Shown here: one piece after another, positions 1 through 64,000 of the stretch
Position numbering within the stretch: position 1 is the first letter of the stretch
Layout of the letters: each line of letters begins with the position of its first letter
Source of the DNA: Vicinamibacterales bacterium
GTDB taxonomy: Bacteria > Acidobacteriota > Vicinamibacteria > Vicinamibacterales > SCN-69-37
DNA length: 64,000 nucleotides
Direction: 5' to 3'
Assembly (NCBI GenBank): GCA_036675475.1
Contig: JAKFEY010000030.1
Location: forward strand, 23,893-87,892
Translations under genes and position numbers: made by a program
The notes under the pieces: model-generated
What the model was told of the DNA's origin: nothing
The model's input: only the letters and a program-made list of their open reading frames with translations
The model's database searches: none

Positions 1-351
1 CGCCGCGGTCTTGCTGCCCATCAGGCGAATCGACGCGGCCGACGGCCCGACAAAGGTGAGCCCCGCCGCCGCGCACGCGTCCGAGAACGCGGCGTTCTCG
101 GCGAGAAATCCATAGCCAGGATGTACGAGTGTCGCGCCCGACTTGCGCGCCACGCCAAGCAGCTTCCCGATGTCGAGATAGCTTTCGCGCGCGGGCGGCG
201 CGCCGATCGGCCACGCCTCGTCGGCCGCGCGCACGTGCAGCGACTCGCGATCGCAATCGGAATAGACCGCGACGCTCGTGAGGCCGAGCTCGCGGCACGC
301 GCGTGCCACACGGACCGCGATTTCGCCGCGGTTAGCGATGAGGACTTTCAC
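1..351 (-). CDS. Biotin carboxylase N-terminal domain of an acetyl/propionyl-CoA carboxylase alpha subunit (partial; 3' end runs off the left window edge)
   Basis: Manual reverse-strand translation from GTG at 349-351: [50 protein letters not shown]...[19 protein letters not shown]...FVGPS...MGSK. This is the canonical biotin-carboxylase N-domain signature. It is absent from the ORF track because there is no in-window stop. Confidence 0.85.
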
Positions 352-375
352 GGGAACTACTTATTTTAGCGGAAC

Positions 376-1311
376 TTAGCGCCGGTGCTGACTCAGCTGG
401 CCCAGAAACCGCAGCAGCACCAGCCCGGGCGCGCGATCGGTCCGGCTCACCACAATCACCATGGCGCTGTGGGTCAGGCCGGAAATGGGCGCCACCCAGT
501 TCCACACGCCATGTTTATCGAGCGCCGCGGCCAGCAATCCAGACTGCCGGCGCAGGGCCTCGGGATCGCCGGTCGAGAACATGACGAGGAAGGGCGGATC
601 GCCGGCGTCGATGAAGCGCACGGGCGACGCGCGCTCGGCCCACTCGGGCGACGTGTCGGTATGAAAGCGCCGCGCAAACCATCGCTGATCGCGGCCGAGC
701 AGGCGATAGGTCAGCTGATCGGCGATGTCGTAGCCGGCGCCGCTCACCGCCGCGACGCCCGCAATGGCCTCGCGCGGCACTTCCGCCTCGGCCAGCCACC
801 GCGGATCGGCCGCGACGAGCGCCGCCAGGTGCGCGCCGGCCGAATGGCCCATCAGCACGATCGATCCGGGATCGCCGCCGCGCGCCGCGATGTGCTCATG
901 CACCCACTTCACGGCGCGCGCGATGTCCGCCGGCTGCGCCTCCCACGTCACTTCCGGAATCAGCCGGTAGTTGACGATGGCCGCGCCGTACCCGTTGGCG
1001 GCGAGAAAGCGGCCGATGTTGCCGTAGAGATCCGCGCCCGACACATGAAGCGACTTGTCGCCCTCGATCCAGTTGCCGCCGTGGATGAACACGACGGTCG
1101 TGAAGCCGCGCGCGTCCGGCACGAACAAATCGAGACGGTGCTTGACGGGATGCGCGCCGGGCCCTTCGACATAGGCGATGCCGCGGGTGACGCGCGCCTC
1201 GGGCAGCGCCGCGTGCCGGTAGAACGGCGTGATCGCCACGCGCTTGGCCGCCTCGCAGCCTGACGCGGCCAGCGAAGCCACGATCAGCGCGAGCGCGGCG
1301 GCGAGTCTCAC
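376..1311 (-). CDS. Alpha/beta-hydrolase (esterase/lipase-type) lipoprotein
   Basis: ORF track 311 aa. It has an N-terminal signal with lipobox (LAASGC), an HGGNW oxyanion-hole motif and a GHSAG nucleophile elbow. The start is GTG at 1311. Confidence 0.85.
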   Translation of the reverse strand: MRLAAALALIVASLAASGCEAAKRVAITPFYRHAALPEARVTRGIAYVEGPGAHPVKHRLDLFVPDARGFTTVVFIHGGNWIEGDKSLHVSGADLYGNIGRFLAANGYGAAIVNYRLIPEVTWEAQPADIARAVKWVHEHIAARGGDPGSIVLMGHSAGAHLAALVAADPRWLAEAEVPREAIAGVAAVSGAGYDIADQLTYRLLGRDQRWFARRFHTDTSPEWAERASPVRFIDAGDPPFLVMFSTGDPEALRRQSGLLAAALDKHGVWNWVAPISGLTHSAMVIVVSRTDRAPGLVLLRFLGQLSQHRR

Positions 1312-1371
1312 AGCGGAATGTTGCCGTGCTTCTTGCGCGGATTGGTGTCGCGCTTCCCCGCCAGGCTGGCG
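1308..1371 (-). repeat. Direct repeat A: relic copy of the last 20 codons plus stop of pccB (att-like)
   Basis: Aligned by eye to 2778-2841: 64 nt with 6 differences, including a 30-nt perfect core (1342-1371 = 2812-2841). It translates to [20 protein letters not shown], identical to the PccB C-terminus. Its TGA overlaps the GTG start of the esterase gene (GTGA). Confidence 0.85.
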
Positions 1372-1410
1372 GGGGGCACACGGGGATGCTCACCGTCAGT
1401 GTACTCCAAT

Positions 1411-1818
1411 CTACCTTACGACCCTCTGGATCTCCGTGAGAAATGCCTCGAGCGTGAGAGGCTGACGAACCAGTAATCTCGCCAACGTTGATCGGGTGGC
1501 CCCGCTCGGTTTCACGTGTGAATTGGCGGCGTACGGGAGCGGGCGCGTGGTGTACACACCGAGCGGGCCATGCACCGGAATATATGCGCCGCCCTCCGCG
1601 ATATGAGCCTGCTGCCCGGCTATGTCCTGCGGAAGCGCACGGCGTAAGAACCATACATACTGAAGGTTTGGCTGAGGGCGAATGAAACCCTCGGCAAGAA
1701 GCTGGGCCGTGGAACCATTCGAAAACTTGACGAGGCCGCCCGGCAGGACGACTGTGACCGACCGACCGCGAAGATCGCCCTTAAGGGTTCGCTCCGGCTG
1801 AACTTCATACAGCATCAC
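1411..1818 (-). CDS. Hypothetical protein (135 aa from internal ATG; ORF extends to 1920)
   Basis: ORF track 1411..1920. The start MLYEVQPERTLKG at 1818 is preferred because the upstream part overlaps the small secreted ORF. I recognise no family motif. Confidence 0.4.
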   Translation of the reverse strand: MMLYEVQPERTLKGDLRGRSVTVVLPGGLVKFSNGSTAQLLAEGFIRPQPNLQYVWFLRRALPQDIAGQQAHIAEGGAYIPVHGPLGVYTTRPLPYAANSHVKPSGATRSTLARLLVRQPLTLEAFLTEIQRVVR

Positions 1819-2020
1819 TATCGATCGACGATCGATCGGCCATCCAGTCGACCTGCTGCTGCGTGAATGACTTGTTTGGCGCGTCTTCAAAACAAACATC
1901 GTAGGCGCCGCTAGGATCATTACCGGATCGAACGGGAGCGCAGGTGACGCAGTCCTGCACGGCGGCGTGCAACACGACCGCGGAGAACACGCTTGCCAGG
2001 AACGAAATCCGGAGCTTCAT
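1805..2020 (-). CDS. Small secreted protein (71 aa), 3 Cys in the mature part
   Basis: ORF track 1805..2044. The internal start MKLRISFLASVFSAVVLHAAVQ looks like a Sec signal peptide. It overlaps the next ORF start by 14 nt. Confidence 0.4.
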   Translation of the reverse strand: MKLRISFLASVFSAVVLHAAVQDCVTCAPVRSGNDPSGAYDVCFEDAPNKSFTQQQVDWMADRSSIDSDAV

Positions 2021-2052
2021 CGGCGCCTCCGTCGGGACGGCCACACATTATT

Positions 2053-2709
2053 TCAGCGCGGAACCCTCTCAACAGACCGCAACAGCGCGATGAGCTCCTG
2101 AGCTCGAACGCGGTGCGCTCCCTTGAACTCCGATAGTCTGCGGGCCGCTGGCGGAACCTCGACGTCAACGCCGTCGAACCGATATGCGCTAAAGGCGCCG
2201 TGCGTCACTGTGTATGCGGTGTCGTTCGTAAGCGGTTCAAGAAAGAGGAGGTATTCCCTGCCTGTCTCCAAGTCGGCGCTCAGAGAGTTCCTGACAATGA
2301 TCTCCACACCGTTGACCTCGAGCGCGCCTCCGGGTTGTGCTACCCAGATCGGGGAACCGTAGGCAAGTCGGGCACCGGCTGGCTGTTTGACCACATCCAT
2401 CACGGAGAGCGCGTGCTCTCGGAGCACCATGTACTCTCCGCTGCCACGTTCCTGCGCACGCAGGCGACTTTCACCAACCCTCGCCTTGACAATAAGTGTG
2501 GCCTTATTGGCGATCGCGCTCAGTGAGGCAGGTTCACGCTCGAGCGCATCGTACGTAATGTACCGCCGCCGAGAGGATTGTTTTTCCTGAGCGTCCAGAG
2601 AGGAAACGCGCGGTGCAAAGGTCAGCGCCACGATGGCAAAGAGCACAGCAAGAATGTTGGCCGAAGTTCGCAATTGCCGCTCCGTTCTCCACCGATCGGC
2701 GCACCCCAT
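2053..2709 (-). CDS. Hypothetical membrane-anchored or secreted protein (218 aa)
   Basis: ORF track 2053..3060, but its N-terminal 117 codons overlap pccB out of frame. The start MGCADRW at 2709 is followed by a hydrophobic segment (ILAVLFAIVALTFAP). Confidence 0.45.
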   Translation of the reverse strand: MGCADRWRTERQLRTSANILAVLFAIVALTFAPRVSSLDAQEKQSSRRRYITYDALEREPASLSAIANKATLIVKARVGESRLRAQERGSGEYMVLREHALSVMDVVKQPAGARLAYGSPIWVAQPGGALEVNGVEIIVRNSLSADLETGREYLLFLEPLTNDTAYTVTHGAFSAYRFDGVDVEVPPAARRLSEFKGAHRVRAQELIALLRSVERVPR

Positions 2710-2777
2710 CGTGCGCCTGTTGACCGTCGCAGTCAACGGGCTCGCCTGAGGGTCAGACAGACAGCTCAGCAGGGCGG

Positions 2778-2841
2778 TTAGAGCGGGATATTGCCGTGTT
2801 TCTTGCGCGGGTTGGTGTCGCGCTTCCCCGCCAGGCTGGCG
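2778..2841 (-). repeat. Direct repeat B: functional 3' end of pccB (att-like partner of 1308-1371)
   Basis: See repeat A. This variant uses more AT-rich synonymous codons (AAA, AAT, ATC, TAA) than copy A. Confidence 0.85.
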
Positions 2842-4325
2842 AGCGCGGCAATCAGCTTCGCGCGCGTGTCGCGCGGGCGGATGATCTCGTCCACATAGCC
2901 GCGGCCGGCGGCCACGAACGGATTCGCGAACGTGTCGCGCAGCTCCTGAATCTTCTCGGCGCGCGCGGCGGCTGGATCCGCGGCGCCCTCGATCTCGCGG
3001 CGGTACAGGATGTTCACGGCGCCCTCGGCGCCCATCACGGCGATTTCGGCCGTCGGCCACGCGTAGTTGAAGTCCGTGCGAATGTGCTTGCTCGACATCA
3101 CGCAGTACGCGCCGCCGTACGCCTTGCGCGTGATGATGGTGATCTTCGGCACCGTCGCTTCCGCGAACGCAAACAGCAGCTTCGCGCCGTGTTTGATGAT
3201 GCCGCCATGCTCCTGCCGCACGCCGGGCAGGAAGCCGGGCACGTCTTCGAACGTGATCAGCGGAATGTTGAACGCGTCGCAGAAGCGCACGAAGCGCGCC
3301 GCCTTCACCGACGCGTCGATGTCGAGCGTGCCCGCCAGCACCGCCGGCTGGTTGGCGACGATGCCGACCGACTGGCCGCCGAGACGCGCAAACCCCACGA
3401 TGATGTTCTTCGCGTAATGCTCGTGCACCTCGAGAAACCGCCCATCGTCAATCACGCGCGTGATGACGTCGTGCATGTCGTACGGCTGGTTCGGCTGCGC
3501 GGGAACCAGCGTGTCGAGCTCCGCGGCCTCGCGGTCGTTATCGGCGCGATCGCTCGCCGCCACGCGCGGCACGTCGTCCAGGTTGTTCGACGGCAGGTAC
3601 GACAGCAGCTCGCGAATCAGCCGGATGCACTCGGCATCGTCGGGCACGGCAAAGTGCGCGACGCCGCTGGTGGCGTTGTGCGTCATGGCGCCGCCGAGCG
3701 TTTCCTTGGTGACGTCCTCGTGCGTGACGGTCTTGATCACGTCGGGACCGGTCACGAACATGTAGCTCGAGCCCTCGACCATGATGTTGAAGTCGGTGAT
3801 CGCGGGCGAATACACGGCGCCGCCGGCGCACGGCCCCATGATGGCGGAGATCTGCGGGATGACGCCCGAGGCGAGGGTGTTGCGCAGGAAGATGTCGGCG
3901 TAGCCGCCGAGCGAGACCACGCCTTCCTGGATGCGCGCGCCGCCCGAGTCGTTGAGGCCGATCATGGGCGCGCCCATCTTCATCGCGAGGTCCATGACCT
4001 TCACGATTTTCGCGGCGTTGGTTTCCGACAGCGAGCCGCCGAACACCGTGAAGTCCTGCGCGAACGCGTACGCCGGCCGGCCGTCGATGCGCCCGTGGCC
4101 GCACACCACGCCGTCGCCCGGCACGATGAACTTCTCCATGCCGAAGTCGCGGCACCGGTGCGTCACCAGCTTGTCGATCTCCTCGAACGTGCCCGGATCG
4201 AACAGCAGCTCGATCCGCTCTCGCGCGGTGAGCTTGCCGCTCTCCTTCTGCTTGCGCAGACGGTCTTCGCCGCCGCCGGCTTCCGCCAGCTTCTCCAACC
4301 GCTCGAGCTTTTCGACGTTTTCCAT
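2778..4325 (-). CDS. pccB: Acyl-CoA carboxylase carboxyltransferase subunit (propionyl-CoA carboxylase beta / methylmalonyl-CoA carboxyltransferase 12S family)
   Basis: The real start is [17 protein letters not shown] at 4325, inside ORF 2778..4709. Motifs seen: [58 protein letters not shown] and [10 protein letters not shown]. Confidence 0.92.
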
Positions 4326-4339
4326 CAGGAAACCAATGA

Positions 4340-4987
4340 CTATTTCTGCTGCGCCTTGTTCCAGTCCTCGAGAAACTTCTTGAGCCCGATGTCCGTGAGC
4401 GGGTGCTTGAAGATCTGTTCGAGCACGGCTGACGGGCAGGTGCAGACGTCGGCGCCGAGGCGCGCGGCCTGCACGATGTGCATCGGCGACCGCACCGAGG
4501 CCACGAGAATTTCCGTGCCCCACTCGTAGTTGTCGTAAATCTCGACGATTTCCTCGATGAGCCGCATGCCGTCGGTGGCGATGTCGTCGAGGCGGCCGAC
4601 AAACGGGCTCACGTAGCTGGCGCCCGCCTTGGCCGCGAGAATGGCCTGCGTCGCCGAGAACACGAGCGTGACGTTCACGCGAATGCCGTCCGACGACAGC
4701 GCCCTGCACGCCTTCACGCCGTCTTTGCCGAACGGCACTTTGACGACGATGTGCTCGTCGATGGTGGCGAGGCTCTTGCCTTCGGTGATCATGGCGGCGG
4801 CGTCGGTGGCCACGACCTCGGCGCTGACCGGGCCCTTCACCGCGGTGCAGATGTCCTTGAGGATGGCGCGCGGGTCGCCGCCCTCCTTCGCCATCAGCGA
4901 CGGATTGGTGGTCACGCCGTCGATGATGCCGAGCTCGACGAGCGCCTTGATTTCCTTGATGTTGCCGGTGTCTGCGAAAAACTTCAT
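4340..4987 (-). CDS. tal: Short-type transaldolase / fructose-6-phosphate aldolase
   Basis: 215 aa: [14 protein letters not shown]...GVTTNPSL...VVKVP...NVTLVFS...SPFVGRLDD. This is typical of the 3B transaldolase/Fsa family. Confidence 0.92.
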
Positions 4988-4998
4988 TCTGTTACTCC

Positions 4999-5100
4999 AA
5001 GGCCAGAGGCCAGCGGCCAGAGGCGTGAGCCGAGCGCGACAACGCGCGCTCGCCTAAGTTTAGTCAGCCCTCTGGCCGCTGGCCTCTGGCCTCTGGCCTT
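4999..5100. repeat. Compound palindromic element: inverted arrays of GGCCAGA-type heptamers flanking an inner GC hairpin
   Basis: Left arm aaggccagaggccagcggccagagg (4999-5023). The right arm is its reverse complement plus one extra tctggcc unit (5068-5100). Inner hairpin: cgagcgcg-acaacg-cgcgctcg. The element sits between the FAH stop and the tal start. Confidence 0.85.
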
Positions 5101-5860
5101 CTACAACTCGGTTGGTCAGCTCCCCGATGCCTTCGATGCGCACCGTTACTGTATCGCCCGGCGCGAGCGGGCCGACGCCGGACGGGGTGCCGGTGAGGAT
5201 CACGTCGCCGGGCAGCAGCGTCATCACGCGGCTGATGTGCTCGACGAGTTTCGCGACCGGGAAGATCAGCTCGCGCGTGGACGAGGACTGCCGGACCGCG
5301 CCGTTGACGAGGCCCTCGATCTTCAGCGCGGACGGATCCAGGCCGAGCGCGACGCACGGCCCGATCGGCGCGAAGGTGTCGAAGCCCTTCGCGCGCGTGT
5401 ACTGCACGTCTTTCTTCTGCAGGTCGCGCGCCGTCACGTCGTTGCCGCACGTGAGACCCAGCACATGGGCCATCGCGTCGCGCTCGCTCACGTGGCTCGC
5501 GCGCGTGCCGATGACGATGGCGAGCTCGGCTTCGTGATGGATCTCGCCCGCCCACATCGGCAGCGTGATGGGGTCGTTCGGGCCAATCACGGCGGTGGAC
5601 GGCTTCATGAACATCAGCGGCTCTGGCGGCAGCGGCTTGTGCATTTCGGCCGCGTGGTCCTTGTAGTTGAGGCCGATGGCGACAATCTTCGAGGGCCGCA
5701 CGGGCGGCAGCAGCGCCGCGTGATCGAGCGTCACGGCCGCGCCCAGCTCGTACGTGCCGAAGGCGTCGCCCTCGACGAGCCGCGCGCTCGTGCCATCGCC
5801 CGATGCGATGACGTGCCGCGGCGATCCGTTGTGCGTGATGCAGTAAAGCAGGTCAGTCAT
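5060..5860 (-). CDS. Fumarylacetoacetate hydrolase (FAH) family protein
   Basis: Starts at [12 protein letters not shown] (5860) inside ORF 5060..6043. Motifs seen: KIVAIGLNYKDHAAE, GEIHHEAELAIVIG, CGNDVTARDLQ, TRAKGFDTF and LLPGDVILTGTPSGVG. Confidence 0.88.
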   Translation of the reverse strand: MTDLLYCITHNGSPRHVIASGDGTSARLVEGDAFGTYELGAAVTLDHAALLPPVRPSKIVAIGLNYKDHAAEMHKPLPPEPLMFMKPSTAVIGPNDPITLPMWAGEIHHEAELAIVIGTRASHVSERDAMAHVLGLTCGNDVTARDLQKKDVQYTRAKGFDTFAPIGPCVALGLDPSALKIEGLVNGAVRQSSSTRELIFPVAKLVEHISRVMTLLPGDVILTGTPSGVGPLAPGDTVTVRIEGIGELTNRVVEGQRPEASGQRAD

Positions 5861-7007
5861 TGCGGCCGGTTTCCTCGACGCGGTTGGATTCGGGACTGCG
5901 ATTGGGCGGCGTCGCCTTGTCGACGGCCACCACCGCATACACGTAGCGCGTGCCCGGCACGGTGGTCGCGTCCTTGTACGTGGTGTCGGTGATCGGAGCC
6001 GCGAACAGCGGTTCAAGCTTGTCGAGCGGAAGCAGTGTGTCACCCGGCGCTTCGGCGCGCAAGACCAGGTAGCCCGCGAAGTCGGCCGCGTCGACCGCGT
6101 CCCAGATCAGGCTGACGGCGCCGGTGCCGGCCACGGCCGTAAGATTCGCGGGCGTGGGGGGCGGGAACACGTCGCGCGGCGTGATGCAGACGGGACCGGC
6201 CGCCGCGCTCTCGATCGACGCGCCCGTCGACGCCACCGCGGAGCGCACCAGGTAGCAGCGCTCGACGCCAAACTCGAGACGCGTGTCTTCGAACGAGGTG
6301 CCGGCCTGCGGCTCCGCGTTGAGCGCGGCCACGGGCTGCCCGTCCTTCACTTCATAGATGCGATACCGCGTCGCCGCCTTCGCGCCGAGCCAGTCAAGTT
6401 TGATCGCCGTCTCGGTGAAGCTCGCGGTGAGATTCGACGGCGGATCGGGCACCGCGGTCAGCGGCACGGCGATCACCTCGGACACGGCGCCCACGCGATT
6501 GCGGCGCGAGACGCCCGCCACCGCGTAGTACCGCACCATCGGCGTCGGATACGCCGTCTGCGCCTCGGTCTCATCGGCCCACGTGATCTCGTCTCCGGGC
6601 AGCGGATCGGGCGGCGGCGAGGGCGTGGCCGTCTGCGCGGCGCCGCCAAGCGGCGGCGTGCGCAGGCTGATGGTGGCGACGCGCGTGGCGTCGCCGCCGC
6701 CGGACAGGTCGTCGGCGGTGGGCGGCGGATCGCCCGCGGGCTTGGTGACCGCGAACACGCGAATGGCCGTGATGTCGGCCGGCGCCGTGCCGTCCTGATT
6801 GGCCGCGGGCACCTTGAAGGTGAGCGTGATGGCGCCATCCTGCACGCGCGTGGCCGACAGCCCCTCGGCCTTCGCCGGCACGGGCCGGTACGGCGGCAGT
6901 GGATCGCCCTTCGACCCACAGGCGGCGGTCGCGAGCGCGGCGATCGCCGCGAGCGCCAGCCCTGAGCGAGGGCGCAGGCCGAGTCGACGTGGCAGTCGAA
7001 GCATCAC
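5853..7007 (-). CDS. Lipoprotein with probable fibronectin-type-III-like repeats
   Basis: 384 aa with a signal plus lipobox (ALATAACGS). It has repeated FN3-like segments ending in YRIYEV / YLVLRA / YVYAVVAVD patterns. Its end overlaps the hslU stop by 4 nt and the FAH start by 8 nt. Confidence 0.65.
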
Positions 7008-32741: not shown

Positions 32742-33791
32742 TTACTTTCTCTCTAACCTTTTACCACCGACCCACACGTAACGCCCGCCGGCCAGCCGCT
32801 GGGCCTTGCCGTCGAGCTCGAGCCTGGTCAGGGCGCCGAGCAGCGTGTCTGCCGCGCCCGGCGCCTGCCGTGTCAGCTCATCGATATCGATGCCGGTCAC
32901 GCCGGCTTCATACAGCGCCGATTCGAGCGGCCCCTCGGGACTGCCCGGATCTGCACATCCCGTCGCGGGCCTGCCTGCCAGCCCAAGGGCATCGAGGATA
33001 TCGGCCGCACTCTCGACCGGCATTGCCCCATCCTTAATTAGGGCGTGCGCGCCGCTGTTCCGGCCGTGCAGCACGCTGCCCGGCACCGCCATCACCTCGC
33101 GCCCCTGCTCCAGCGCCATCCGGGCCGTAATCAGCGACCCGCTCTTCTGTGACGCCTCGACCACGACAACCGCCCGCGACAGCCCGCTGATGATGCGGTT
33201 GCGCCTCGGAAAATGGCCCGGATACGGCGGCGACCCCGGCGGCAGCTCGCTTACCAGCAGCCCGTGCGCCGCAATCCGCGCCGCAAGCTCCCCATGCTCG
33301 TGCGGATAGACGACATCGACGCCCGTGCCGAGCACGGCAATCGTCCGCCCGCCGGCGGCCAGGCAGGCCTCGTGCGCCGCCCCATCCACGCCCCTCGCCA
33401 TCCCGCTGGTGACGATCAGGCCGGCATCGGCCAGCCCGGCAGCCAGGGCCCGCGCCACCTGCCTCGCATACTGAGACGCCGATCGGGATCCCACGATGGC
33501 GACAGACGTCTGTTCGAGAACGGTCAGGTCGCCCCGGACCCACAGCACCGGCGGCGGGTCGGGCACCATCCGAAGCCAGGCAGGATAACGCGAATGGCTC
33601 CAGTCGAGGGTCACGATGAGGTCGTCAGGGTCCACAACTGCTCCCCTGAGGACAGGATTTCGAAAGCCCTCGTCGAAAACCGAAAGGGCCGGTACACCCT
33701 GTCCCCGGTCAAAGGAACTGGTGTCCGACCCTGTCTGCCAGTATAGGCACCGGCTTTCGAAAGACGCAAGCCGTCCTATGATCGGAGGCAT
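32742..33791 (-). CDS. dprA: DNA processing protein DprA (Smf)
   Basis: Motifs seen: VAIVGSRSAS.YA, SGMARGVDGAAH, IAVLGTGVD..YP, HFPRRNRIISGLS and VVVEA..KSGSLITA. The exact start is uncertain. Confidence 0.85.
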   Translation of the reverse strand: MPPIIGRLASFESRCLYWQTGSDTSSFDRGQGVPALSVFDEGFRNPVLRGAVVDPDDLIVTLDWSHSRYPAWLRMVPDPPPVLWVRGDLTVLEQTSVAIVGSRSASQYARQVARALAAGLADAGLIVTSGMARGVDGAAHEACLAAGGRTIAVLGTGVDVVYPHEHGELAARIAAHGLLVSELPPGSPPYPGHFPRRNRIISGLSRAVVVVEASQKSGSLITARMALEQGREVMAVPGSVLHGRNSGAHALIKDGAMPVESAADILDALGLAGRPATGCADPGSPEGPLESALYEAGVTGIDIDELTRQAPGAADTLLGALTRLELDGKAQRLAGGRYVWVGGKRLERK

Positions 33792-38710: not shown

Positions 38711-38899
38711 ATGCTGACGGTCCCGGACCTCCGGCGAGACTACGGCGAAACGAGGCTCCGCGTCTTTGGGATGATCGACAGCCGGCTCCACGTGGGCGCC
38801 ATCACTCGCCGAGGCGATGTGACGCGGGTGATAAGTCTGCGGCGCGCGAATCGACGCGAACAGAGGACCTATGCGACGAAGACCCAGTCAGCCGGATGA
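38711..38899 (+). pseudogene. brnT: BrnT-family (DUF497) toxin, N-terminally truncated (62 aa versus about 90 aa typical)
   Basis: DLRRDYGETRLRVFGMIDSRLHVGAITRRGDVTRVISLRRANRREQRTY matches the C-terminal two-thirds of BrnT (..E.R....G......L.VV.T.RG...RIISAR.A...E...Y). The N-terminal FEWD..K...N..KHG part is absent. Upstream in-frame sequence is REP-derived. Confidence 0.55.
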
Positions 38900-39206
38900 C
38901 GAAAACCCGGAGTGGACGGCCGAGGACTTTCGTAACGCCCGTCCCCTCAAGGAAGTGCTTCCTGACCTGTATGAGGAACTGCGGCGCTACCAAGGCCAGC
39001 GCGGAGCCCAGAAGACGCCGACCAAGCAGTTAATCAGTCTGCGGATCGATCGGGATGTCGCGGACGGGTTGCGCGCCAGCGGTTCAGGCTGGCAGACGCG
39101 CGCGAACGACGCGTTGCGGGCGTACGCCACGAAGGCAGGGCTGGTGCGCGAGCAGCGGCCCGCGTTCGCGCGCAGGAAGCGCGCTAAAGTCTTGCGCGCG
39201 AAGTAA
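38871..39206 (+). CDS. brnA: BrnA-family antitoxin
   Basis: 111 aa. The DDENPEWTAEDFRNARP motif and ISLRIDRDV...GSGWQTRANDALRAY are characteristic of BrnA. It overlaps brnT by 29 nt. Confidence 0.75.
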   Translation: MRRRPSQPDDENPEWTAEDFRNARPLKEVLPDLYEELRRYQGQRGAQKTPTKQLISLRIDRDVADGLRASGSGWQTRANDALRAYATKAGLVREQRPAFARRKRAKVLRAK

Positions 39207-61374: not shown

Positions 61375-63093
61375 ATGCGAATGCTCACGATGACCCCAGC
61401 ACCGGAGAAGGCCGCGATCCGCGGCCGGCGACGCTGGTTCCTGATTGCGGCCGCCGCAATTGCCCTTCTAGGTATCGTCCCTCAGCCTGCCGAAGCGCAG
61501 AGGCGCGCGAAACTCTCGCGCGATCTCGAGGCGCGGCTGGCCGGGGCGGGCGCGGGCCGCGCCGAAGTCATTCTCGATCGCCTGACGGCCGGCGAGATCG
61601 AGCGCCTGGCGGCGAAGCATGGCGCGACGGTGAAGCGCCACTTCTCGCGCGGCGCGGTGCTCGACGTCGACGCCGACGCGCTCCGCGCCCTCGCGGCCGA
61701 TCCTGACGTTCCCCACATCTCCGGCAATCACACCGTGCTCAGCACGATGGCCGTGGCCCTCGCGGCCACGGGCGCCGACCAGTTGCATGGCGACGACAGC
61801 GATCGCGGCGAGGCGCGCTACACCGGCAGTGGCATTGGCATCGCCGTGATCGACTCGGGCATCGCGCGGCACTCGTCGCTCGCGGGCAAGGTGGTTGCGA
61901 ACGTCGACTTCATCGACGGCGGCCGCGGCCGGCGAGGGGCTGACGATGAGTATGGGCATGGGACGCATGTGGCGAGCATCATCGCGGGTGATGAGCGCGG
62001 CAAGGGCGGCCTGCGCGGCATGGCGCCCGGCGCGCATCTGGTGAACCTGCGAGTGCTCGACGAGAACGGCCAGGGCACGGTGGCGGATGTCATCGACGCC
62101 ATCGACTGGGCGATCGACAACCGCGCGCGCTACAACCTGCGCATCGTCAATCTCTCGCTCGGTGCGGCGCCGCAGGAAAGCGCGGCGGACGATCCGCTGG
62201 TGCAGGCGGTGGACCGCGCGGTGCAGGCGGGGCTGCTCGTCGTGGCGTCGGCCGGCAACATGGGCAAGACCGAGGACGGCAAGATGATTCTTGGCGCCGT
62301 CCTCTCGCCCGGCTTGGCGGCCTCGTCGCTGACGGTGGGCGGCGCGAACACGCGCGGCACGGCGTATCTCGGTGACGACACGGTGGCGACGTGGAGCTCG
62401 CGCGGCCCCACGTATCCGGACGGCCTGATCAAGCCGGACGTGATCGCGCCGGGCAATCGCATCATCGCGGCGGGCGTCGAGGGATCGACGCTGTGGACCA
62501 GCTATGCGGAGCGGCGCGCCGGCGGCCGTGGCGCGAACGGCCGCATCGAGCTCAGTGGCACCAGCATGTCGGCGGCGGTGGTGTCGGGCGCCGCGGCGCT
62601 GCTGCTGGAAGCCGCGCCTGGCCTGTCGCCGGCGCAGGTGAAGACCGCGCTGCAGCTGACGGCGGCGCCCATCGAAGGCGCCGGCCTGATCGAAATGGGC
62701 GCCGGCGAAATCAATCTTCCTCTCGCCCTCTTCGTCGCCCAGAACGGCCCCAACGTGCCGCTGCCCGCCGCGCAAATTGCCGGCGCGAGCGTGGTGCCGA
62801 GCGGGATCGCGTTTGGGAGCGACGAGAGCCAAATCGAAGGCAACAACGTTGTCTGGGGCAACAACGTTGTCTGGGGCAACAACGTTGTCTGGGGCAACAA
62901 CGTTGTCTGGGGCAACAACGTCGTCTGGGGCAACAACGTCGTCTGGGGCAACAACGTTGTCTGGGGTAACAACGTTGTCTGGGGCAACAACGTTGTCTGG
63001 GGCAACAACGTCGTCTGGGGCAACAACGTTGTCTGGGGCAACAACGTCGTCTGGGGTAACAACGTCGTCTGGGGTAACTCCGACGTTCAATGA
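61375..63093 (+). CDS. Subtilisin-like (S8) serine protease with a Tat-type signal and a C-terminal 13x NNVVWG hexapeptide array
   Basis: The start MRMLTMTPAPEKAAIRGRRRWFLIAAAAIALLG is twin-arginine-like. The catalytic residues are D (AVIDSGI), H (HGTHVASII) and S (SGTSMSAAVVSG). The start is uncertain (alternatives at 61285 and 61315). Confidence 0.88.
   Translation: MRMLTMTPAPEKAAIRGRRRWFLIAAAAIALLGIVPQPAEAQRRAKLSRDLEARLAGAGAGRAEVILDRLTAGEIERLAAKHGATVKRHFSRGAVLDVDADALRALAADPDVPHISGNHTVLSTMAVALAATGADQLHGDDSDRGEARYTGSGIGIAVIDSGIARHSSLAGKVVANVDFIDGGRGRRGADDEYGHGTHVASIIAGDERGKGGLRGMAPGAHLVNLRVLDENGQGTVADVIDAIDWAIDNRARYNLRIVNLSLGAAPQESAADDPLVQAVDRAVQAGLLVVASAGNMGKTEDGKMILGAVLSPGLAASSLTVGGANTRGTAYLGDDTVATWSSRGPTYPDGLIKPDVIAPGNRIIAAGVEGSTLWTSYAERRAGGRGANGRIELSGTSMSAAVVSGAAALLLEAAPGLSPAQVKTALQLTAAPIEGAGLIEMGAGEINLPLALFVAQNGPNVPLPAAQIAGASVVPSGIAFGSDESQIEGNNVVWGNNVVWGNNVVWGNNVVWGNNVVWGNNVVWGNNVVWGNNVVWGNNVVWGNNVVWGNNVVWGNNVVWGNNVVWGNSDVQ
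62842..63075 (+). repeat. 13 tandem 18-nt repeats AACAACGT(T/C)GTCTGGGG(C/T) encoding (NNVVWG)13
   Basis: Counted unit by unit. The only variation is at two synonymous wobble positions. The array is in frame with the S8 protease ORF. Confidence 0.97.
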
Positions 63094-63134
63094 GTCGGAC
63101 TCAATCGGGAAATCTGCACGGAAAGGATAGGATT

Positions 63135-63164
63135 ATGAGCAAAGTTATCGTCTGGGGCAGCTAA
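63135..63164 (+). CDS. Candidate 9-codon micro-ORF MSKVIVWGS (orphan repeat unit, leader peptide or non-coding relic)
   Basis: An AGGA-containing purine tract (gaaaggatagg) ends 4 nt before the ATG. The string gtctggggca is shared with the upstream repeat unit. A small hairpin (gaagg-tcg-ccttc) and then the next gene's ATG follow. Confidence 0.25.
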   Translation: MSKVIVWGS

Positions 63165-63192
63165 ATAAGAACGAAGGTCGCCTTCTTCCGCG

Positions 63193-64000
63193 ATGAAATC
63201 GACTGGATCTCTTTCTGTTCGGGCCCGCAGTTATGTCGTCGCCGTCGCTGCTATTGGCGGCGGCGTGCTCATAGCCGCCGTTGCGGATCTATTACGGGAT
63301 CGAGTCGACCCTTGGTGGTTCCTCCTGGTCGGGCTCACGGTCTTTACAAGCTCGGTCACCGTCAAAGTACCATCCGTCGCGGCGACGTTGTCGGTTTCTG
63401 AAGCGTTCGTGTTTTCGTCCGTGATCCTGTACGGCTGGTCTGCAGGGACAATCGTCGCCTCCATCGATGGGCTAGTCATTTCATACTGGTTGCAACGACG
63501 ACGGCCGCAGCCAACCTATCGCGTCGTTTTCAACACCACGGCTCCGGCTTTGGCGACATGCTTTGCGGCTTGGGTTTACTTTGCCGCGGGGGCACCCAAC
63601 GTATCGGACCCGGCGTTCCAGATCACCCAGATCTTGCTCCCGTTGTGTGCCTTCGCCGCGACGTACTTCCTTGCGAACACTTCTCTACTCGCTGTAGCGA
63701 TCTCTCTTGAGCAAGGTGTCTCGGCCGTCACGCTCTGGAAGAACAATTTCTTATCCCTTTGGCTCAATTTTTTCAGCGGCGCCTCGATGGCCGCACTGCT
63801 GGTTAGCTTTGGTGCCCAAGGTGGGGCCAATGCTCTGGGCGCTATATGGGTAGTTCTCCCGCTTTTGGGTATCTCGTACTTCACGTATAAGACATCGATG
63901 GCGCGAATCGAAGACGCCAACAAGCATCTGGAACAGCTGAATACGCTCTACCTTTCCACGGTAGAAACGTTGGCAATGGCCATCGATGCCAAAGATCAGA
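63193..64000 (+). CDS. Polytopic membrane protein, probable N-terminal sensor or membrane domain of an HD/HD-GYP-type phosphohydrolase (partial; runs off the right edge)
   Basis: Manual translation is open from ATG 63193 to the window end and shows about 6 hydrophobic helices. The final residues read HLEQLNTLYLSTVETLAMAIDAKDQ. From memory, that resembles the segment preceding the Y-T-x-G-H-S-x-R-V motif of HD-GYP domains, but the HD domain itself is outside the window. GC and codon usage are visibly lower (TTA, CTA, ATA). Confidence 0.65.
   Translation, partial: MKSTGSLSVRARSYVVAVAAIGGGVLIAAVADLLRDRVDPWWFLLVGLTVFTSSVTVKVPSVAATLSVSEAFVFSSVILYGWSAGTIVASIDGLVISYWLQRRRPQPTYRVVFNTTAPALATCFAAWVYFAAGAPNVSDPAFQITQILLPLCAFAATYFLANTSLLAVAISLEQGVSAVTLWKNNFLSLWLNFFSGASMAALLVSFGAQGGANALGAIWVVLPLLGISYFTYKTSMARIEDANKHLEQLNTLYLSTVETLAMAIDAKDQ

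Follow-up and report, generated by a model that had tools for sequence, protein, structure and literature searches.

A probable remnant of an integrative element in the 3′ end of pccB of an uncultured acidobacterium, bounded by two chimeric copies of the gene's end

Introduction

In a 64-kb stretch of a Vicinamibacterales genome (GenBank assembly GCA_036675475.1, contig JAKFEY010000030.1, positions 23,893 to 87,892; hereafter the window, whose own numbering we use throughout), 1406 bp of foreign DNA (1372..2777, minus strand) have been inserted between the acyl-CoA carboxyltransferase gene pccB and the esterase gene that was formerly its immediate downstream neighbour, and the insert is bounded by two copies of the pccB 3′ end that encode the same protein terminus. 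We put the probability at about 0.6 that this insert represents what decay has left of a site-specific integrative element in the pccB 3′ end, similar to the cis-mobilizable elements (CIMEs) of streptococci, with its own recombinase lost or never present. The mechanism is long established, as in e14 in icd and ICESt1 in fda; the new parts appear to be the pccB target and the host phylum. The original prediction, which was made from the letters of the DNA, had treated a carboxyltransferase 3′ end as not known to be an integration target, and pccB does appear unreported in that role, though protein-coding 3′ ends have long been known as targets; a literature search on pccB with attB and integrase gave nothing relevant.

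Results

A direct repeat of the pccB end flanks a foreign insert

The insert lies between the two copies of a 64-nt direct repeat on the minus strand, an attR-like copy A at 1308..1371 and an attL-like copy B at 2778..2841, the latter forming the last 64 nt of pccB, and the copies differ at 6 of their 64 positions. A repeat search returned the pair as one family (1312-1371 and 2782-2841, 93% identity, spacing 1470), which alignment lengthens to 64 nt, and the repeat is confirmed as it had been predicted. Both copies encode the same 20 residues of the PccB C-terminus plus a stop codon. All six differences fall within the stop-proximal 34 nt, where five are synonymous and the sixth changes the stop itself, TGA in copy A and TAA in copy B, the end now in use by pccB. 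The remainder is a 30-nt perfect core (1342-1371, identical to 2812-2841 on the copy B side), within which the crossover may have taken place, and which occurs exactly twice in the window, even with 3 mismatches allowed, against 0 occurrences expected from shuffled sequences.

Copy A is an orphan, 20 codons of pccB end without a gene body, as had been claimed: the reading frame upstream of it meets a stop and bears no resemblance to PccB, and a tblastn search of PccB against the whole window recovered the gene and the 20-codon remnant only, with no further carboxyltransferase fragment. Carboxyltransferase sequence upstream of 1371, which would have pointed to a degraded tandem paralogue, is thus absent both by frame reading and by tblastn, and the similarity between copies A and B ends abruptly at 1371/1372. 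At its other edge, the copy A TGA (1310-1308) overlaps the GTG start codon of the esterase gene (1311-1309). The element or its junctions were recovered in 17 independent metagenome contigs at 99.8-100% identity, so the repeat structure is no assembly artefact; four of the 17, from different samples (L001, L098, L099 and L100), cover the whole element with both repeats at 99.95-100% identity. Samples in which the strain occurs include SRR17380415, DRR855434, DRR855550, SRR22388130 and ERZ27315274.

In composition the insert departs strongly from its flanks. Its GC content is 0.604, compared with 0.673 ± 0.023 in all other 1406-bp windows of the stretch (z = -3.0, with GC this low in 0.17% of windows), and the G+C content at third codon positions (GC3) is 0.65-0.67 in its open reading frames (ORFs) against 0.87-0.92 in the neighbouring host genes. 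The insert ORFs, which are all co-directional with pccB and the esterase gene, retain a coding-like GC1 > GC2 < GC3 pattern. The original prediction had coupled this lower GC of the intervening 1406 bp with more AT-rich codons in copy B, and only the former stood: copy B holds 41 G+C and copy A 42, a net difference of one, the six changes being 3 AT-ward, 2 GC-ward and 1 neutral.

Relatives carry an empty site

Four contigs (L090-L093) fetched through a protein search with the esterase, which stand for three relatives, all carry the empty site. Their esterases are 93% identical to that of the window at the amino-acid level and 90% at the nucleotide level in L090 and L091, 78% identical in L092 and 68% in L093. 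In each of them the pccB TGA overlaps the esterase GTG (GTGA) with nothing in between, and pccB ends with the copy-A-like sequence ...AAGAAGCACGGCAACAT(T/C)CCG(C/T)TGTGA placed directly on the esterase start, so that GTGA, which had been proposed as the ancestral pccB-esterase junction, is present in all three relatives. In L093 the gene order continues pccB, esterase, biotin carboxylase, BCCP. In the ancestral arrangement the esterase gene therefore followed pccB immediately downstream and was translationally coupled to it.

The empty sites imply that the insertion postdates the split from the L090/L091 lineage; nucleotide divergence between that lineage and the window is about 4% for the pccB 3′ region and 10% for the esterase gene. 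A scan of JGI metagenomes with the esterase gave a single relative, 35% identical. A scan of GTDB with PccB gave 80 loci at 64-82% identity, which are uninformative on the empty site because none of them has the esterase or the cargo downstream. Among GTDB species representatives, the best matches to the window PccB (MAGs of Vicinamibacteria/Acidobacteriota) reach only 79-82% identity, so these representatives hold no close relative of the source acidobacterium, and an exact-sequence look-up of the window PccB found no record.

The repeats are chimeric

Comparison with the relatives separates the two copies. In the stop-proximal 33 nt, copy A differs from L091 at 2 of 33 positions and copy B at 6 of 33, against 11 of 270 in pccB just upstream (binomial P = 0.002), from which it follows that the last ~11 codons of pccB were imported and that the orphan copy A holds the native end. 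The stop-proximal 34 nt of copy B (2778-2811) would then be element-derived. Synonymous differences between the copies number 5 at the 11 sites of the tail and 0 at the 10 sites of the core (P = 0.002-0.02). So sharp a switch is compatible with a crossover within the core or at its edge, and it argues against both a linear donor fragment anchored further upstream and a target duplication that later drifted.

Across the inner boundary of copy A lies a 19-nt perfect palindrome, CCCCGCCAG-G-CTGGCGGGG (+ strand, 1356..1374), in which bases of the element lengthen to 9-bp arms a palindrome with 6-bp arms that is common to both copies. The window holds 25 listed inverted repeats with arms of at least 9 bp, some sites being listed twice; because that leaves ~20 distinct palindromes in 64 kb, the placement of one on the junction is only mildly improbable (rough post-hoc P ~0.02). 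As a DNA hairpin it scores z = -2.3. It can be read as CCCCGC-CAGCCTG-GCGGGG, a layout like that of tyrosine-recombinase core sites, and is a candidate recombinase core site. The predicted attB junction reads ...CTGATTGCCGCGCTCGCCAGCCTGGCGGGGAAGCGCGACACCAATCCGCGCAAGAAGCACGGCAACATTCCGCTGTGAGACTCGCC... and the predicted attP junction ...CATCCCCGTGTGCCCCCCGCCAGCCTGGCGGGGAAGCGCGACACCAACCCGCGCAAGAAACACGGCAATATCCCGCTCTAACCGCCCTGCTG....

A further observation concerns 1369-1371 and 2839-2841, where both copies read GCC-AGC (Ala-Ser) and all three empty-site relatives GCG-AGC; from this single base arises the palindrome CGCCAG-C-CTGGCG with its 6-bp arms. A substitution in the lineage or an import from the element could account for the base.

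The cargo is a truncated three-gene module

Three ORFs occupy the insert, whose non-coding ends are 2710-2777 and 1372-1410, and only one of the three cargo genes predicted there is intact, the other two being fragments. The intact gene, ORF3 (2053..2709, minus strand), encodes 218 aa, and gene calls of this same length come from 8 independent contigs. Pfam, NCBIfam and PHROG searches gave it no match, and word-based protein searches with ORF3 and ORF1 returned self-matches only; the view of the cargo as orphan genes, which came from these word-based searches, was overturned by an exhaustive HMMER search, which found 116 distant full-length homologues of ORF3, and then by tblastn on the locus so retrieved. 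A PDB sequence search with the cargo gave nothing, and family searches across the cargo in Pfam, NCBIfam and PHROGs produced only single sub-threshold or isolated chance-level matches (for ORF2, one sub-threshold PHROG match of unknown function). The confident AlphaFold model of ORF3 (predicted local distance difference test score 87.4) has an N-terminal signal or anchor helix and a beta-rich domain; the best Foldseek matches were TIMP-2, the NTR domain of PCOLCE and the C345C domain of C3 at E = 1e-4 to 1e-3, with template-modelling (TM) scores of only 0.35-0.54. These matches hint at a secreted protein with a TIMP/NTR-like fold, for which a role as protease inhibitor would be one possibility.

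The closest homologue of ORF3, at 44% identity, lies on the unrelated contig JALYEH010000213.1 of GCA_030154745.1 (L094) in an intact module that is syntenic with the cargo and consists of g1 (203 aa, matching ORF3), g2 (262 aa) and g3 (245 aa). Direct reading of g2 reveals the HExxH motif HEFLHVLGFDD, and the protein has no Pfam match. Comparison of the ORF3-family profile with g3 (hhalign probability 95%, E = 2.6e-8) indicates that g3 and the ORF3 family are distantly paralogous, a relationship visible by profile comparison only, as BLASTP was negative both for ORF1 with ORF3 and for g1 with g3. In this module (L094 6001-8211), two paralogous secreted proteins of ~200-245 aa thus flank a 262-aa HExxH protein, and none of them has a Pfam family; the three genes could be a bacterial set of protease and inhibitor. 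The L094 module is flanked by genes for IS110-type and IS3-type transposases and has a GC content below that of its surroundings. Another member of the ORF3 family adjoins an IS1595 transposase fragment, and members of the module repeatedly adjoin transposase genes and PadR/MacB-type genes.

Against this module, the remainder of the cargo appears as two partial genes. ORF2 (1805..2020, minus strand; 71 aa) corresponds to the 5′ part of g2, residues 12-60 of which match window 1999-1850 (tblastn, 35% identity, E = 7e-4), with the HExxH part gone. ORF1 (1411..1833, minus strand; 134 aa from an ATG at 1815) corresponds to the 3′ part of g3, whose residues 107-239 match window 1833-1429 (tblastn, 43% identity, E = 3e-30). 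Because ORF2 and ORF1 match only parts of g2 and g3, a stretch of ~0.95 kb that begins within g2 and ends within g3 has been lost from the window cargo. The alignment places this internal deletion at a junction (1823..1850) between the point where g2 homology stops, at 1850, and the point where g3 homology begins, at 1833, on ATCGATCG short repeats and a palindrome (I20, 1823-1844). The original prediction had left the choice between a decayed island and a cis-mobilizable cassette; the internal deletion favours a decayed remnant over an active mini-cassette.

Downstream of ORF1, the TAG stop is followed after one base by a TTG (1407-1413) that opens a 33-codon frame, which crosses copy A to the TGA that overlaps the esterase GTG. 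It might, speculatively, keep the esterase under translational coupling.

Gene neighbourhood and other features of the window

The genes in the first 5 kb of the window are all on the minus strand. They comprise a transaldolase-like gene (4340-4987); pccB itself (2778..4325), which encodes an intact acyl-CoA carboxyltransferase beta subunit of 515 aa that covers the full Pfam Carboxyl_trans profile (E = 4e-203); the esterase gene (376..1311; 311 aa, BD-FAE/Abhydrolase_3 by Pfam); and, at the window's start, the N-terminus of a biotin carboxylase (1..351; Pfam Biotin_carb_N, E = 6e-43), which is the next gene of the carboxylase operon after the esterase. Scans of the window for tRNA genes and Rfam families found none, so there is no att (attachment) site in an RNA gene nearby. 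A promoter and terminator scan of 300-4500 likewise found nothing, and a hairpin 3′ of the new pccB stop is no better than in shuffled sequence. Since no terminator-like site was found and all ORFs are co-directional, transcription probably reads through the insert within the pccB-esterase-accC operon. The esterase gene would keep 64 nt of native upstream sequence and would have lost its direct translational coupling to pccB.

Elsewhere in the window, an intergenic inverted repeat at 4999-5100, set between the transaldolase-like gene and the next one upstream (5060-6043), has 31-nt arms that are 87% complementary, is built of reiterated GGCCAGAG/GGCCAGCG units and is unique within the window. 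A gene for a BrnA-type antitoxin (38871-39206, E = 1e-21) is probably part of a BrnT/BrnA toxin-antitoxin pair. A second low-GC stretch at ~62500-64000 has the lowest GC of the window (0.587) and contains an ORF (63193-64000) whose GC3 is 0.65 and whose only match, to MASE9, is weak; it may be a further foreign segment running off the window end.

Discussion

Integration and decay at the pccB 3′ end

The empty sites, the foreign composition and the chimeric repeats together support the footprint that had been proposed for this locus, that of an element which integrates in the 3′ end of a gene and brings a replacement end with it. In the scheme we infer, a circular element carried as its attP a ~64-nt mimic of the 3′ end of pccB, and a single reciprocal recombination with the chromosomal pccB end (attB), at a point inside the 30-nt core, would have produced both junctions. 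Copy B would then consist of host pccB joined to the element-borne last ~11 codons and TAA, which leaves PccB full-length and unchanged in sequence, and copy A of the element edge joined to the native last codons, with the TGA still overlapping the esterase GTG. The enzyme would most likely have been a tyrosine recombinase, its gene either once part of the element and lost by deletion or encoded elsewhere. The cargo, itself decayed, derives from a module of three genes, which encode a secreted TIMP/NTR-like protein, one with an HExxH motif and a TIMP/NTR-like paralogue of the first; the first gene alone is intact.

As predicted, there is no integrase, transposase or excisionase between the repeats, and neither these nor any other recombinase was detected in the three insert ORFs with Pfam, NCBIfam and PHROGs, which agree; these ORFs are homologous to a non-recombinase module, the insert has no conjugation or mobilization genes, and no relics remain in it of genes from integrative and conjugative elements (ICEs) or integrative and mobilizable elements (IMEs). 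Several observations weigh against this account. Neither the insert nor any of the 30 further window ORFs scanned with Pfam encodes a recombinase, so the enzyme is purely inferred. A second example of the target did not turn up either, as an extra pccB end within 6 kb downstream occurs in 0 of the 80 GTDB genomes, and neither the core nor a degenerate pccB-tail pattern has a match in 2.9 million viral contigs. The intact module of L094 sits among insertion sequence (IS) elements without a pccB-like att sequence, and other vehicles must therefore carry the module as well. Signs of excision are absent, the element being in place in every contig with an identical esterase or ORF3, and the core/tail statistics rest on ~20 synonymous sites.

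One contig deserves separate mention: L105 (Logan SRR22388130) corresponds to window 2841-1342, 1500 nt, and begins and ends exactly with the core. As evidence for an excised circle it is ambiguous, because an assembly made with k=31 would likewise be interrupted at a repeat of 30 nt.

Other explanations

Much of what weighs against a dedicated recombinase would suit host recombination, in which the repeat is a by-product rather than an att site, and we consider this explanation, the main rival, unlikely. It might have taken the form of a RecA-dependent, Campbell-type single crossover with a circularised fragment, from a close donor in which the module follows pccB, or a linear donor fragment, with its anchor in pccB, might have entered by homology-facilitated illegitimate recombination. 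Either would account for the missing integrase, in the insert and in the scanned window ORFs, for a module that is elsewhere associated with IS elements and not with an integrase, and for the failure to find another genome using the site among the 80 GTDB loci and the viral contigs; moreover, the core encodes 10 lineage-specific residues, so a donor copy would have come from the pccB of a close relative. However, a linear fragment with its anchor upstream of the repeat predicts donor-type differences across all of copy B, contrary to the confinement of the synonymous differences to the tail, and pccB just upstream of the repeat is not excessively diverged from L091. An identity of 30 nt is at the lower limit for a RecA-dependent crossover, a relative with pccB followed by the module was found neither among the 80 genomes nor among the contigs with the esterase or ORF3, and the element-side extension of the junction palindrome is left unaccounted for. 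The window itself carries a gene for DprA (32742-33791), part of the natural transformation machinery, which bears on host recombination in this organism.

Direct repeats that flank an insert, with differences that are all silent in the translated copy, would also be expected if a transposon-like or repair-mediated insertion had duplicated 64 bp of target and the identical copies had later drifted. We hold this to be very improbable: copy A matches the relatives, while copy B has accumulated five synonymous changes and a stop change in 34 nt next to 270 nt that differ from L091 by only 4%, too many for drift after insertion. No transposase gene is present and no inverted repeat pairs the two ends of the insert, and a 64-bp target duplication far exceeds those of known transposons. 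An insertion sequence or transposon was rejected on the same absence of transposase and end-pairing inverted repeats, and on an imperfect repeat of 64 nt whose tail looks foreign. For a degraded tandem pccB paralogue or an assembly artefact, to which we give next to no credence, the existence of a second pccB end is the only point in favour; the paralogue is ruled out by the lack of carboxyltransferase similarity beyond 20 codons and by the empty sites in relatives, and the artefact by the four independent contigs that span the whole structure.

Implications

The occupied site, the empty sites, the chimeric repeats and the decay of the cargo together make the pccB element a clean worked example in Vicinamibacteria-like Acidobacteriota, whose mobile elements are poorly known. 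The exact attB and attP sequences amount to a testable prediction, and the cargo points to an uncharacterised bacterial family of TIMP/NTR-like proteins that stands beside an HExxH protein and is repeatedly found near transposase genes. We also entertain, as a rather improbable extension, that the pccB 3′ end might be the dedicated att site of an undescribed family of integrative elements in Acidobacteriota, with a recombinase that recognises CCCCGC-CAGCCTG-GCGGGG and with small recombinase-less cassettes of TIMP/NTR-like and protease genes moved in trans or by accretion. If true, the CIME concept would come to include an uncultured soil phylum, and there would be a handle on gene flow within it.

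Comparison with known systems

SXT/R391 in prfC and the dusA-specific islands use protein-coding targets and restore the reading frame (PMC5812530, PMC4482086), and the pccB element resembles them in that a conserved protein-coding gene is used site-specifically and its frame restored. They differ from it in targeting 5′ ends and in always having an integrase beside the att site, where the pccB insert has none, and membership in such integrase-bearing island families fails on this point.

Closer in design is e14 in icd of E. coli K-12, which supplies the end of the gene and leaves a 163-bp icd′ (icdC) pseudogene (PMC6379469, PMC13626634). As with e14 and phage 21 in icd, entry here is into an essential metabolic gene at its 3′ end, the substitute end brings mostly silent differences, an orphan 3′ fragment remains at the far end, and the two ends correspond to attL and attR. 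Unlike the pccB element, e14 measures 15 kb, encodes its own integrase and undergoes SOS-induced excision; the pccB element is 1.4 kb long, with no recombinase and no excision evidence, its repeat is 64 nt, and its substitute end is protein-identical.

The 3′ end of fda is the integration target of ICESt1/3 (PMC5812530), and classical CIMEs, 1.2-13 kb in size, keep their att sites, lack recombination genes and are regarded as decayed ICEs or IMEs (PMC7563491, PMC5812530). CIMEs are defined by a known cognate ICE or IME with the same att site, often in tandem, whereas no cognate element is known for the pccB element (30 window ORFs scanned) and its host is an uncultured, Vicinamibacteria-like acidobacterium; in origin and cognate element its membership is putative. 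By structure it belongs with the streptococcal CIMEs, and its size and genes are in keeping with these and with ICESt1/fda. Streptococcal CIMEs in the 3′ ends of fda, rpsI, rpmG and rplL have att-type direct repeats around cargo only and carry no integrase, relaxase or transfer genes, and the pccB insert, likewise without genes for recombination, conjugation or mobilization, retains both putative att sites with an identical 30-nt core, an architecture by which it would take its place among the CIMEs.

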